NCBI GenBank assembly: GCA_963666565.1
Contig: OY762911.1
Coordinates: 544,001 to 608,000 of the forward strand
Length of the DNA stretch: 64,000 nt
Origin: Thermoanaerobaculia bacterium
Lineage (GTDB): Bacteria > Acidobacteriota > Thermoanaerobaculia > Multivoradales > Multivoraceae
Reading direction: 5' to 3'
Made by a program: the position numbers and the translations under genes. Each line of letters opens with the position of its first letter. The stretch's first letter is position 1. Positions 23,187-52,004 of the stretch are shown here, piece by piece. Below the pieces are notes generated by a model. The model made no database searches. It was not told the origin of the DNA and saw nothing but the letters and a program-made list of their open reading frames with translations.

Positions 23187-23372
23187 CCGTCCGCTTGGCG
23201 GGCGTTCCGGGGGAGGGCTCCCAGCGGACGCTCGCGCCTGTTGGGTGAGAGGGATGTCGGCGCTCGCTTCGGTCGCCTGCGCTGCGGGGCGGTTCGGTTG
23301 AGGTGACGGTCCGGGGAGACGCTTGGCTCCAGCCCGCTGGGAGCCCTCCCCCGGAACGCCCTGGCGGACTGG
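23187..23372 (+). repeat. ~185-nt intergenic hairpin element, copy A
   Basis: Perfect 28-bp inverted repeat 23200-23227/23334-23361; ends CCGTCC...GGACTGG; internal motifs shared with copies B-D. Confidence 0.85.
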
Positions 23373-23396
23373 ACGCTGGCGCACTCGGCGCAAAGC

Positions 23397-23508
23397 GTCG
23401 GTGCATGGGGGTCGGTACACGGGGGTCGGTGCATGGGGGTCGGTGCGCGGAGGTCGGTGCGCGGGGGTCGGTACACGGGGGTCGGTGCATGGGGGTCGGT
23501 GCGCGGGT
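23397..23508 (+). repeat. 14-bp tandem repeat array (about 8 units, GTCGGTRCRYGGRG)
   Basis: Units start at 23397, 23411, 23425, 23439, 23453, 23467, 23481, 23495; the last runs into the palindrome at 23503. Confidence 0.9.
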
Positions 23509-23520
23509 CTTCTGACCCGC
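23503..23520 (+). repeat. REP-like palindrome GCGGGTC-TTCT-GACCCGC
   Basis: Related copies at 41773-41788, 41864-41881 (inverted) and 63047-63064. Confidence 0.75.
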
Positions 23521-23600
23521 TGCCGCCGAAGGCGGCGGACAACGTCGTCGTCGGCCGGAGGCCGGCGGCGTCGCTCACGGGGGGACGCTACGATCGGTTC

Positions 23601-24152
23601 GTGTCCGGCACCTACTCGTTGCGCCTCGGCAAGGAGGACTTCAAGTTCTCGGCGGCTCACTTCACCGTTTTCGGAGAGGACGAGGCGGAGGCGCTTCACG
23701 GACACAACTATCGGGTCGGAGTGGAACTGAGCGGCGCCGATGTGGATGGGCTCGAGTTCCTGGTGCCAGTCGCCGCGGCGAAGCGGGATATCCGGTCGCA
23801 GTGCATGGAGCTCGACGAGAAGGTCCTGCTTCCGGCGGAGTGCCCGCATCTTGAAGTCGTGCAAGGCGAGACGGTGACAGCGGCGTTCGGGCCGCGGCGC
23901 TACGAGTTCCCCTCCTCGGAGGTGGTCCTGCTGCCGGTAGCGAACGTGACCGTCGAAGCTCTGGCTCGGTTACTCTGGCAACGCTTGGCGGACCGGTGGG
24001 GATCTCTTCGCGACCGCGTCGAGATCCTCGAAGTCACAGTGGCTGAAACCCGGGGCCAGGGCGCCAGCTACCGGCGCAAACTCCAGGAGCATCGCCTTGA
24101 AGACGCAGTTCGATCCCGACGACAGCCAGTTGGCTACCCTCCGCGGACTTGA
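23601..24152 (+). CDS. queD: 6-carboxytetrahydropterin synthase / 6-pyruvoyl-tetrahydropterin synthase family
   Basis: FSAAHF, LHGHNYRV, NVTVEALA, V.ET..QGASY; probable GTG start at 23601. Confidence 0.8.
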   Translation: MSGTYSLRLGKEDFKFSAAHFTVFGEDEAEALHGHNYRVGVELSGADVDGLEFLVPVAAAKRDIRSQCMELDEKVLLPAECPHLEVVQGETVTAAFGPRRYEFPSSEVVLLPVANVTVEALARLLWQRLADRWGSLRDRVEILEVTVAETRGQGASYRRKLQEHRLEDAVRSRRQPVGYPPRT

Positions 24153-24531
24153 TCCCGAGGGCCCGGTTGCCGCGCTCAACCTCTTCCAGTTCAACGACCG
24201 GGCCCGGTACGCACCGGGCGACGAGGAGTACGGCACCGAGGAAGCCGACGTCTCGGGCCAGGAGGCCTTTCAGAGATACGTAGCCGCCGCGGGCCAGGTC
24301 CTTGCCGACCTGGGAGGCCGCGTTGCGTTCACCACGATGGTGGAGCAGGTGATGATCGGGCCCTCGGACCCGGCCTGGCACGTCGCGGCGATCATGGTCT
24401 TCCCTTCCCGCCGGGCCTTCATCGAGATGACGATGAACCCCGAGTTCCAGGCCGCCTCCCGCCACCGGAAGGCCGGCTTGGCAAACCACTACCAGGTGCA
24501 CCTGAACGGCGCACCCTGGGTGGAGGAGTAG
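24097..24531 (+). CDS. DUF1330-family protein
   Basis: GPV..LNL..F, GQEAFQRY, W....MVFPSRRAFIEM...PEFQ...HR.AGL; TTG start with SD CAGGAG. Confidence 0.75.
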   Translation: MKTQFDPDDSQLATLRGLDPEGPVAALNLFQFNDRARYAPGDEEYGTEEADVSGQEAFQRYVAAAGQVLADLGGRVAFTTMVEQVMIGPSDPAWHVAAIMVFPSRRAFIEMTMNPEFQAASRHRKAGLANHYQVHLNGAPWVEE

Positions 24532-24675
24532 TCAGCCCGCTTCCCTGCTTCAGGCGAAGCTCCATCGTTGCAGGCGAGCTGGCCGCCGATGTACTCCTTC
24601 TTCTTGTTCTCGCTGTGCCGGCGAGGACGCCGGCGCACCGGCACTCCAAGGTCGTGCCACGAAAACCGACAACGA

Positions 24676-48981: not shown

Positions 48982-48994
48982 GGCAGCCTCCGCC

Positions 48995-49483
48995 TCAGGA
49001 ACGGGCCCGGGTGGCGCCGCGCTGGTGCTGGTACCGGCTTCCGGCGCCCGGTTCCCCGTACGCGGTCTCCGGCTCGGACTCCATCGCGATGAAGATCAAC
49101 TGGGCGATGCGGCGGCCGGCGTCGAGCACGAACGGCACCGGGCCGAGGTTCTGCAGCTCCAGGGTGATGTTCCCCTCGAACCCGGGGTCGCACCAGCCGG
49201 CCAGCGAGTGGTTGATCCACAGCCGGCCCAGCGTCGACTTGAGCTTCAGGTCGCAGGCCACCGAGCGCGGAATCCGCACGAACTCCAGGGTGGTGGCGAG
49301 CACCACCTCGCTCGGGAACAGCTTGATCCGGTCGCCGTGGAACTCCTCCGGGTCGCGGGTGGGGCAGATCCAGTGATCGCCGACGCGGACGTCGTAGCTG
49401 GCGGAGTTCACCTGCTCCGGCTTGAAGGGATCGACGCCGCCGGCCTCGCCCCAGGCGCGGATCCAGTGGTCCGGCTTGATCAT
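48995..49483 (-). CDS. dcd: dCTP deaminase
   Basis: SYDVR, KSTLGR, DPGFEGNITLE, RIAQLIF, YQHQRG. Confidence 0.9.
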   Translation of the reverse strand: MIKPDHWIRAWGEAGGVDPFKPEQVNSASYDVRVGDHWICPTRDPEEFHGDRIKLFPSEVVLATTLEFVRIPRSVACDLKLKSTLGRLWINHSLAGWCDPGFEGNITLELQNLGPVPFVLDAGRRIAQLIFIAMESEPETAYGEPGAGSRYQHQRGATRARS

Positions 49484-49501
49484 CGTTGCGCCGCCCCCGC
49501 C

Positions 49502-50476
49502 TCAGTGGAAGAACACGGGGCCCCGGTCGTCGCCCCGGTGGATCGTCTCGACGAAGCGGATCGCGCCCTCGGCGAGCGACATGAGCAGGGTCGAGGTCCG
49601 GTGGCCGCCGCCCTCGAAGCGGACGCCGCGCAGGAGGTCGCCGCCGGTGACGCCGGTGCAGCAGAACAGGATGTCCTCGCCCGGCGCCAGTTCCTCCGTG
49701 GTGCAGATCCGGTCGGGATCCTCGATGTCGAACTCGGCGAGCCGCCGCTCCTGCTCGTCGGACAGCGCCGACAGCCGGCCCTGGATCTCGCCGCCGAGGC
49801 AGCGCATCGCCGCCGCCGTGATGACCCCTTCCGGCGCCCCGCCTGTGCCGATCACCGCGTGGACGCCAGTGCCGCGAACCGCGGCCGCGATGCCCGTCGA
49901 CAGATCGCCGTCGCCGATCAGCTTGATCCGGGCGCCCGCGGTCCGGATGTCGTCGATCAGCCCGCGGTGCCGGTCCCGGTCGAGCACGACCACGGTCAGC
50001 GCGCTGACCGCGCAGTCGAAAGCGCCGGCGATCGCGTTCAGGTTGTCCTCGACGGGCGCGTCCAGGTCGACGCGTCCCCGCGCGGTGGGACCGACGACGA
50101 TCTTGTCCATGTAGATGTCCGGCGCGTGAAGCAGGCCGCCGCGCTCGGAGGCGGCGAGCACCGCCATCGCGTCGGACGCGCCGGTCGCGCAGAGATTCGT
50201 CCCCTCCAGCGGATCGACCGCGAAGTCGACCGGCAGGTCGCCGGCGGCCCGGCGGCCGACCTCTTCGCCGACGTAGAGCATCGGCGCCTTGTCCCGTTCT
50301 CCCTCGCCGATCACGACCCGGCCGTCGATCGCCATGCCGGCCAGTGCCTCGCGCATCGCCTCCACCGCGACGTGATCCGAGTGGCGCCGGTCGCCGTAGC
50401 CCATCGTCTGGGCCGCCGCCACCGCCGCGGCCTCGGTGACGGCGACGAAGTCGTGCTCGCGCAGGCCTCCCGTCAC
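49502..50476 (-). CDS. glpX: Class II fructose-1,6-bisphosphatase
   Basis: [45 protein letters not shown] start overlapping the upstream stop. Confidence 0.95.
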
Positions 50477-51747
50477 GCGCCGGCCCCGGCCGCCGCCGCC
50501 AGCTCCGGCCGCGCCTCGGTTTCCCGCGCCTGCGCGCGGCTCATCGGCGGATTGAAGGAGGGAATGCCGGTCACCGCGGCGCCGATCACCAGGCCGTGGA
50601 TGTCGTGCGTGCCCTCGTAGGTGTAGACCGACTCGATGTTCAGCATGTGGCGCACCACCGGATACTCGTCGGAGATGCCGTTGGCGCCCAGGATCTCCCG
50701 CGCCAGCTTCGCGCACTCGCGCGCCACCCAGACGTTGTTCCGCTTGCACATGGAGACGTGCTGCGGTTCCATCGTGCCGGCCGTCTTGAGGCCCGCCAAC
50801 TGGCGGACGAGGAACTGGCCCTTCGTGATCTCCGTGATCATCCACGCCAGCTTCTCCTGCACGAGCTGGTGGCTGGCGATCGGCTGGCCGGCGAACTGCA
50901 CCCGCTGGCGGGCGTACTCGAGCGCCGTGTGGTAGCACTCCATCGCCGACCCCAGACCGCCCCAGCAGATGCCGTAACGCGCCTGGTTCAGGGTCTGGAG
51001 CGCGCTGCCCACGCCGCGGGTGCCCGGCAGGATGTTCTCGGCCGGAATCCGGCAGTTCTGGAACGAGAGCTCGCCGGTCGCCGAGGCCCGCAGCGAGAAC
51101 TTGCCGTGCATCTCGGCGCTCGCGAAGCCGTCCGTCCCCTTCTCGACGAGAAAGCCGCGGATCCCCTCGTCCGTGCGCGCCCAGACGACCGCCACGTCGG
51201 CGACGTTGCCGTTCGTGATCCACTGCTTGGCGCCGTTCAGCACCCAGCAGTCCCCGTCCCGCCGCGCACGCGTCCGCATCGCCGAGGGGTTCGAGCCGAA
51301 GTCCGGCTCGGTGAGCCCGAAGCAGCCGATCAGGCGGCCGCTCGCCAGCCCCGGGATGAAGCGGTCCTTCTGCTCCTTCGAGCCGAAGGTCAGGATCGGG
51401 TACATGACCAGGGAGCTCTGGACCGAGACCATGCTGCGGACGCCCGAGTCTCCGCGCTCGAGCTCCTGCATGACCAGGCCGTACGCCACGTCGCCCAGGC
51501 CCGGCAGCCCGTACTCGGTGAAGTTCGCCCCGAACAGGTTCAGGTCGCCCATCTCGGGAGCGAGTTCCATCGGCGCCCGCGCCTCGCGGTGGCACTGCTC
51601 GATGATCGGCTTCACCCGCTCGTCGACGAACTGGCGGACGGTGTCCCTGATCAGCCGCTCCTCGCCGCTGAGCAGCGAATCGAAGTTCATGAAATCAACG
51701 CCGGGGAATCGCTCCAAGGCCTCGCTCCTGGTGGTTTGCGGCAGCAC
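50473..51747 (-). CDS. Acyl-CoA dehydrogenase, glutaryl-CoA dehydrogenase-like
   Basis: [44 protein letters not shown]. Confidence 0.9.
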
Positions 51748-51821
51748 CGAACCCTAGCAGCCGGCGCGCCGCCCGCCAGGAGGCTGCGTCGCTCAACGCA
51801 GCGAGGCGGCGTCGGACGTAC

Positions 51822-52004
51822 CCGCCCGTCCTGGGTCAGGAGGGGTCGGCGCCCAGGTGACGCTCGCGCTCCAGAGGAGAATGGGAGGGGTTGCGCCCGC
51901 TCCGCTTCACTCGCTCCGGTTCGGCGTCGGCTTCCGGGAAGGCGTCGGCCGTCGCTCGTTCAGAGGCGCCTGGGCGCCGACCCCTCCTGACCCGACTGGG
52001 CTGG
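51822..52004 (+). repeat. ~185-nt intergenic hairpin element, copy D (most diverged)
   Basis: Inverted repeat GGGTCAGGAGGGGTCGGCGCCCAGG / CCTGGGCGCCGACCCCTCCTGACCC; GACGCTCGCGC after the left arm; ends CCGCCC...GGGCTGG then ACGC. Confidence 0.75.

Follow-up and report, generated by a model that had tools for sequence, protein, structure and literature searches.

A branched intergenic repeat of about 185 nt in Thermoanaerobaculia, possibly recognised as folded single-stranded DNA

Several families of short bacterial repeats resemble the element described here, and the following traits, taken from excerpts of the sources cited here and below, are shared with it. REPINs and bacterial interspersed mosaic elements (BIMEs), the repetitive extragenic palindromic (REP) sequences that go with a REP-associated tyrosine transposase (RAYT, also TnpA-REP), are non-coding, intergenic and located near gene ends, form a long hairpin with strand-specific irregularities, occur in tandem arrays and have a patchy copy number (PMC3116915, PMC8266576). 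CGTC-tagged REPs and the "atypical secondary structures" with a CnGA foot that belong to class 3 TnpA-Y1 are palindromic DNA in high copy number, for which the linked transposase is missing or atypical, and class 3 TnpA-Y1 occurs in Acidobacteria (PMC3733652, PMC6006769). Miniature inverted-repeat transposable elements (MITEs) and structured intergenic repeats such as ERIC/IRU, YPAL/RU-2, CIR, RUP and NEMIS are 100-200 nt long, intergenic, form long stem-loops and often lie behind genes (PMC2229807). In integron attC sites, finally, one DNA strand is recognised by its fold, with little sequence conservation (PMC5737381). We examined a dispersed, structured intergenic repeat of which a 64,000-nt window from a Thermoanaerobaculia bacterium (contig OY762911.1, positions 544,001 to 608,000) contains four copies, A to D.

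A sequence-only reading of the window had first delimited these copies, and its coordinates, strands, arm sequences and end sequences were all verified. Copy A (23187..23372, + strand) lies 85 nt downstream of the stop codon of a small CxxU gene (22872-23101), copy B (24676..24861, - strand) 2 nt past the stop of an rlmD-type methyltransferase gene and copy C (41924..42108, - strand) 35 nt past an IstB/DnaC-like ATPase gene; copy D (51822..52004, + strand) is a member of a 17-copy subfamily that shares its closing stem. These orientations are those of the first reading and are called the reader's strand in the following; the strand on which the copies probably fold is the opposite one, that is - for A and D and + for B and C. 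An iterated nhmmer profile of the source genome (G000, a single 4.79-Mb contig with 70% G+C) matches copies A-D with E-values from 4e-26 to 2e-34. Copy A, for which the folding z-score is -5.8 against 200 shuffles, is spanned with 0 differences by contigs from two DNA runs of one study and is therefore not an assembly artefact.

The element has a branched fold. Mutual information over 81 copies (6 of 87 rows were dropped before the covariation scan) reveals three helices that meet in a tight three-way junction: a closing stem of approximately 35 bp (P1), a short 9-bp arm with a loop of about 22 nt (P2) and a longer, irregular arm with a loop of about 33 nt (P3). In an alignment of 40 copies, 37 from G000 and 3 from relatives, 93% of the cells pair, 38 of the 50 pairs vary on both sides and 0 of 500 shuffles reach the observed value. 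This covariation bears out the earlier proposal that selection acts on the structure and not on a fixed terminal inverted repeat. Both sides vary in 39 of 41 pairs among 79 distant matches, which come from other families and from one divergent genome of the genus; again 0 of 500 shuffles reach this, in an alignment that had been fitted to the model. The loop lengths are kept as well, with 22 nt in P2 for 56 and 33 nt in P3 for 70 of 79 parsed copies (8 unparsed rows were dropped before the loop-length and flank-test analysis). The loop sequences are variable, with mean identities between paralogues of 0.57 and 0.61 for the two loops, and P1 identity between paralogues is 0.69. The interior had been described as a series of ordered motifs, which is correct but incomplete, as it also makes the two further covarying arms. 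The end type of copy D, CCGCCC...GGGCTGG in place of CCGTCC...GGACTGG, had been taken for the exception and turned out to be the majority form (C-G in 30 and T-A in 7 of the 40 aligned copies).

The mismatches within the helices differ between the two strands. On the reader's strand there are eight conserved C·T appositions within helices, each present in 31-40 of the 40 copies and often arranged as tandem TC/TC, and on the opposite strand these positions become G·A, mostly as tandem GA/GA between C-G pairs. Since the same positions turn into Watson-Crick pairs in other lineages, they act as helical positions. In the distant copies, the non-Watson-Crick cells of P2 and P3 on the reader's strand comprise 149 C·T, 12 A·G, 39 G·T and 28 A·C appositions. 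When the fold defined by covariation is evaluated on both strands, the reverse strand gives the more stable one in 36 of 40 copies under DNA parameters and in 38 of 40 under RNA parameters. Tandem GA is described as a strongly stacked, stable sheared step in DNA and C·T as weak (PMC8163305, excerpt). We infer that the selected fold sits on the strand opposite to the reader's. Concerning the nature of the folded strand, P1 is informative: it is nearly all Watson-Crick, with 22 G·T versus 29 A·C among 2279 positions in 68 G000 copies (9 unparsed and 10 poorly paired rows were dropped before these P1 and flank counts) and with 48 versus 63 in the distant copies. A selected RNA helix normally favours G·U on its own strand, and the lack of a G·U bias in P1 therefore favours single-stranded DNA (ssDNA) over RNA. 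The folded form is thus probably ssDNA, with antisense RNA as the alternative. Methods of this kind cannot fully separate ssDNA from ssRNA, according to the excerpted text of PMC5737381.

The repeat family is real and order-wide, and it appears to be undescribed in print. The search of G000 (iterated nhmmer profile, E<=1e-3, non-overlapping matches) gave 96 matches, 84 of them near full length and 12 partial, in agreement with the many genome-wide copies that had been predicted from the window. Their lengths vary modulo 3, and the mean identity among 81 aligned copies is 64% (range 49-99%). With the first model, copies were found in 34 of 36 other genomes of the genus, between 2 and >127 in each, and none in two complete genomes of the genus. 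A core model gives matches in 50 of 151 genomes from the order, which belong to 23 of 63 genera. For the broadest model the figures are 31 of 151 at class level and 6 of 151 at phylum level, and each of these two tallies includes one match in an unpublished genome (G064) that supports no other statement here. Weak single or tandem matches with, by eye, the same architecture are also present in two genomes from a different order and in one from a different class. An exact pattern run against 185,579 species genomes returned 60 stretches, 57 of which are titled Thermoanaerobaculia or Acidobacteria, two "uncultured bacterium" and one Rhodanobacteraceae; the last falls within a predicted open reading frame (ORF). 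No match covering 80% of the query was found among 72,556 plasmid records, and three exact patterns gave 0 matches in viral contigs. The pattern search of metagenomes yielded 65 stretches, and two of the six that were inspected are simple-repeat false positives; we observed such a chance match in L174 and L220:2400-2640, a long simple repeat of CGCT-containing units on an unrelated contig. One RNA run, from a sponge metagenome, shares words with the element, in a small share; its contigs come from a relative, and read mapping yielded no usable RNA or excision signal for the joints listed. The expectation that the element is not a named family holds for Rfam 15, where the window has no match at gathering score and, at E<=10, matches only generic long-hairpin miRNA models far under the cut-off, and where 18 loci from relatives gave nothing relevant. 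Among the papers listed by literature searches none describes the family; motif tables in supplements (e.g. of PMC5737381 and PMC6006769) could hold a relative.

The element is REPIN-like in its behaviour, but it is not a REPIN. A REPIN has two conserved REP ends around a variable spacer, whereas here the closing stem is variable and the branched interior is conserved. The ends are not two conserved inverted short palindromic REPs, neither flank carries a GTAG or GGAG foot 5' of the hairpin (68 copies), and no RAYT gene is flanked by the same repeat (0 of 67 Y1 loci). There is some likeness to the CnGA foot, as the folding strand often starts with CCGA about 8 nt before the stem. However, CGTC-tagged REPs have 8-9-bp stems with 4-5-nt loops in the excerpted sources, while the present element is about 185 nt long and branched, and no Y1 gene was found beside any copy. 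From MITEs and the other structured intergenic repeats it differs by the absence of a fixed terminal inverted repeat, of TA ends and of a target duplication, by its high G+C content and by a conserved fold on the non-sense strand; terminal inverted repeats shared with an insertion sequence (IS) were not found either. As in attC sites, one strand folds and unpaired features set which one, so that the element works like attC without being a member of this family: cassette arrays with a nearby integrase are absent, the copies follow housekeeping genes and none of the four recombinase genes of G000 is nearby. The DUF1874 motif may, as has been noted, be a rare example of an ssDNA that goes beyond a hairpin in complexity (PMC5737381, excerpt).

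Individual sites show considerable turnover. Full copies are present at site B in G047, G001, G048 and G020, an interrupted copy in G003 and truncated relics in others, and at site C in G005, G019, G004 and G020, with internally deleted relics in about 10 other genomes. Empty sites, which had been suggested as a check, exist for copy D, whose site is unoccupied in 28 of 28 readable relatives. Moreover, P1 stays at a shared site while the interior can be replaced. At site C, G005 and G019 are 0.93 identical both at the 4-fold sites of the neighbouring gene and in P1, but only 0.64-0.65 in the loops, which is near the paralogue means, and 0.74 in P3; G000 at site B shows the same pattern of a kept P1 and a replaced interior. 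Among 57 paralogues, P1 and core are only weakly correlated (Mantel r=0.18). Head-to-tail arrays occur in G010 (L128:13370-14850), G055 (L084) and G033 (L229), with periods of about 235, 327 and 440 nt and units that include long flanks, and nested copies are present in G000. The search for target-site duplications gave no excess of flank similarity: in 68 copies, the 8-mers flanking the same copy match at 3.3 positions versus 3.6 after shuffling, and the best shared word scores 5.46 versus 5.42. Two identical inverted copies flank a ruvB-like gene in G000 (G000:C1:873626-875511, L006), and a near-identical pair lies at the same gene in G024 (L059, L076), which suggests local gene conversion. 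At three loci a different palindromic repeat interrupts the element at its junction (L142 in G003, G000:C1:2085966 and G000:C1:3957021).

The reading that we favour, with modest confidence, is that of a non-autonomous, lineage-specific repeat that is recognised as folded ssDNA, copied in trans by a protein and homogenised by gene conversion. Such a protein would act on transient ssDNA, where it would recognise the geometry of the junction and the internal loop rich in G·A, and would duplicate the element in trans in the way proposed for RAYTs and REPINs. The head, i.e. the junction and the loops, would be swapped within a site-specific P1 by gene conversion among the copies, and one subfamily may also have moved inside the ends of a CTAG-targeting repeat.

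A number of observations weigh against this reading. There is only one pair of identical copies in G000, which indicates low recent activity. At one apposition close to the junction it is the reader's strand that has G·A (26 of 40 copies), and in P2 and P3 of the distant copies G·T is slightly more frequent than A·C on that strand (39 versus 28); the mismatches of the distant copies were counted in an alignment fitted to the model. For the inner arms, pairing is predicted with low probability on either strand (reverse 0.17-0.22, forward 0.02-0.06), so that the fold would need a protein or non-canonical stability. Tandem G·A is stable in RNA, too, and the symmetry of P1 could stem from arm-to-arm copying rather than from selection on DNA. 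Furthermore, the element was found at 0 of 67 Y1 loci (33 genomes; within 1.5 kb of the match; E<=0.1) and at none of four Rep-like IS loci, and no nuclease, recombinase or reverse transcriptase recurs beside the 96 G000 matches and 284 other loci as judged by inspection and all-against-all BLASTP, without a Pfam scan.

The last results also bear on the earlier suggestion that an HUH enzyme of the RAYT or IS200/IS605 type mobilises the element and might be linked to it. G000 has one Y1 transposase, a RAYT that is flanked by its own REP family, and of 42 genomes of the genus 25 have Y1 matches, with none in several genomes that are rich in copies of the element; on 30 of the 67 Y1 loci the first model gave weak sub-element scores only. 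A link to the RAYT was therefore rejected and no linked RAYT, TnpA or reverse transcriptase gene was recovered; an HUH-type enzyme may nevertheless act in trans. Other candidates fared no better. The single GIY-YIG match in G000 is a gene beside one copy, which we take to be UvrC-like, the search for DUF559 gave no match, and none of the four tyrosine recombinase genes of G000 is near a copy. A 1.87-kb CTAG-bounded IS that encodes a Rep-like protein of about 530 amino acids (L293, G000:C1:130132-131999, and five more copies) was found with this query in 5 of 42 genomes of the genus; it was rejected as a general mobiliser because it occurs in few genomes and its ends are unlike the element and unlike repeat X, which is described below. 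In another genome, G135 (L478-L507 set), there are 29 Y1_Tnp matches, many of them clustered near contig ends.

More tentatively, the element might serve an unrecognised system of ssDNA recombination or replication as its substrate. In this case a protein, possibly a host protein, would read a three-way DNA junction with two open loops of fixed length, copy it to new sites and exchange the head between resident stems without any cis-linked enzyme. Such a natural ssDNA structure, present genome-wide, would exceed in complexity the hairpins of REPs, attC sites and IS200/IS605 ends.

Rather doubtful is a host-domesticated ssDNA signal, for instance a priming, restart or protein-loading site exposed in replication or transcription, that spread and was homogenised by ordinary recombination with no dedicated mobiliser. 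It would fit the stems at orthologous sites, which are more conserved than neighbouring 4-fold sites (P1 0.82-0.97 versus 0.61-0.93), the excess of intact over partial copies and the geometry that persists in further orders and in a further class. The folding strand also has short G/A-A-G-C-G motifs that resemble a stretch downstream of the ColE1 origin, which is presumably ssiA itself. The excerpted text of PMC3167613 places the PriA-loading ssiA downstream of this origin. However, the core model fails to match the ColE1 stretch, and the likeness to primosome assembly sites (ssiA, n'-pas) exists at the level of short motifs only. The copies are not confined to one replication strand either, as 50 of 87 lie on the leading strand of G000 (p=0.20), and a host function would not lead one to expect two complete genomes of the genus without a match next to others with 2 to 127+ copies.

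It seems unlikely that the element is a non-coding RNA with many copies that is made from the reverse strand and is antisense to the gene upstream, or an RNA intermediate in a copying process of the retro type. The reverse strand wins with RNA parameters as well and the above-mentioned limits of the methods apply; furthermore, both three-way junctions and loops with tandem G·A are frequent motifs in RNA. On the other hand, neither strand shows G·U enrichment, no reverse transcriptase gene was seen among the neighbours by inspection, without a family search, and a match in Rfam is lacking.

Still less likely is an RNA element in the 3' untranslated region on the sense strand, whose long stem would stabilise the mRNA, be cut by RNase III or terminate transcription, by analogy with proposals for ERIC, YPAL and NEMIS (PMC2229807, excerpt). 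Most of the support comes from the position of the copies in G000, determined with crude gene calls of our own model: 70 of 87 copies lie downstream of a co-oriented gene and usually close to it, convergent gaps are preferred to divergent ones (39 of 164 versus 9 of 301), copies in co-oriented gaps follow the same orientation in 27 versus 8 cases (p=0.002) and 38 of 41 copies in convergent gaps are nearer to the co-oriented gene. For the same reason the folding strand is usually the template strand of the upstream gene. C·U mismatches line the inner arms on the sense strand, where the predicted pairing of these arms is near zero (0.02), and the stem lacks a G·U bias. A structured RNA in the sense of the upstream gene, as first envisaged, is thus disfavoured, since the inner fold is stable mainly on the opposite strand. 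In other families and genera the orientation bias is absent (42 versus 35, p=0.49; 90 loci with crude ORF calls), so that it is either not family-wide or the ORF calls there are too crude; it could also arise secondarily from P1 alone. Mobilisation as a classical MITE, by a DDE transposase via terminal inverted repeats, for which size, intergenic location, short conserved end motifs and the entry of copy D at a CTAG site might speak, is largely refuted and very improbable, because the arms differ between copies, a target duplication is lacking in 68 copies, 0 of 8 multi-copy IS-sized loci of G000 match the core model and the CTAG ends belong to repeat X and not to the junction element.

The neighbours of the copies in G000 are mostly core genes, and a role as cassette borders was rejected, since atypical genes follow 17 of 59 copies compared to 69 of 315 plain gaps (p=0.24). 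TAG stop codons are enriched in the upstream genes (36 of 63 versus 307 of 809, p=0.003), while CTAG is not enriched and REP-adjacent genes show a similar trend.

Copy D deserves separate mention because of repeat X, a second family of about 110 nt with CTAG at both ends, of which a full copy lies at 52050..52159 (+ strand). G000 contains 68 matches to X, 34 of them full-length, and the left end is CTAG or CCAG in 28 of these 34. The tetranucleotide CTAG occurs at 0.07 of the equal-base expectation. Tandem copies of X share one CTAG, and in 29 of 31 copies of X the strand shown gives the better fold. Copy D is embedded in a composite unit at 51776..52053 (+ strand), in which it is preceded by a left end and followed by a right end of X, bounded by CCAG and CTAG. 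Among the 17 copies of its subfamily, 8 have an X end that scores above all 70 other copies, and 3 have both ends. At the position where G000 has the composite and the full X, CTAG is found in 8 of the 28 empty sites, which points to an arrival of copy D at a CTAG site within the ends of repeat X. Beside 137 element matches in 130 loci, mostly from related genomes and metagenome contigs, there was only one weak case of such an association, and hitch-hiking therefore accounts for part of one subfamily only.

Two further features in the window belong to the separate REP family of the RAYT, the core of which has 739 exact matches genome-wide. A REP/REPIN-type palindrome (23498..23590, + strand) lies beside copy A and a REP doublet (41770..41890, - strand) beside copy C. 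A short tandem run of degenerate units of about 14 nt (23400-23510, + strand) runs into the former and looks like slipped copies of the REP start. The small gene upstream of copy A (22872-23101, + strand) has an in-frame TGA in its CxxU motif and is presumably Rdx/SelW-like; the genome has a tRNA-Sec. Between copies A and B (23373-24675) there are a queD-like and a DUF1330 gene, which are missing here in some relatives (L158, L160), where the CxxU gene and rlmD converge directly.

If the element is merely a dormant REPIN-like repeat, the gain is one of lineage-specific annotation. Known bacterial repeats that are recognised as ssDNA are mostly simple hairpins, whereas here a branched geometry with fixed loop lengths is kept order-wide while most of the letters change, and the strand can be read directly from the mismatch pattern. 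The family offers a natural dataset for tandem G·A substituting for Watson-Crick pairs, and it may serve as a defined bait for finding a new enzyme that reads ssDNA structure.

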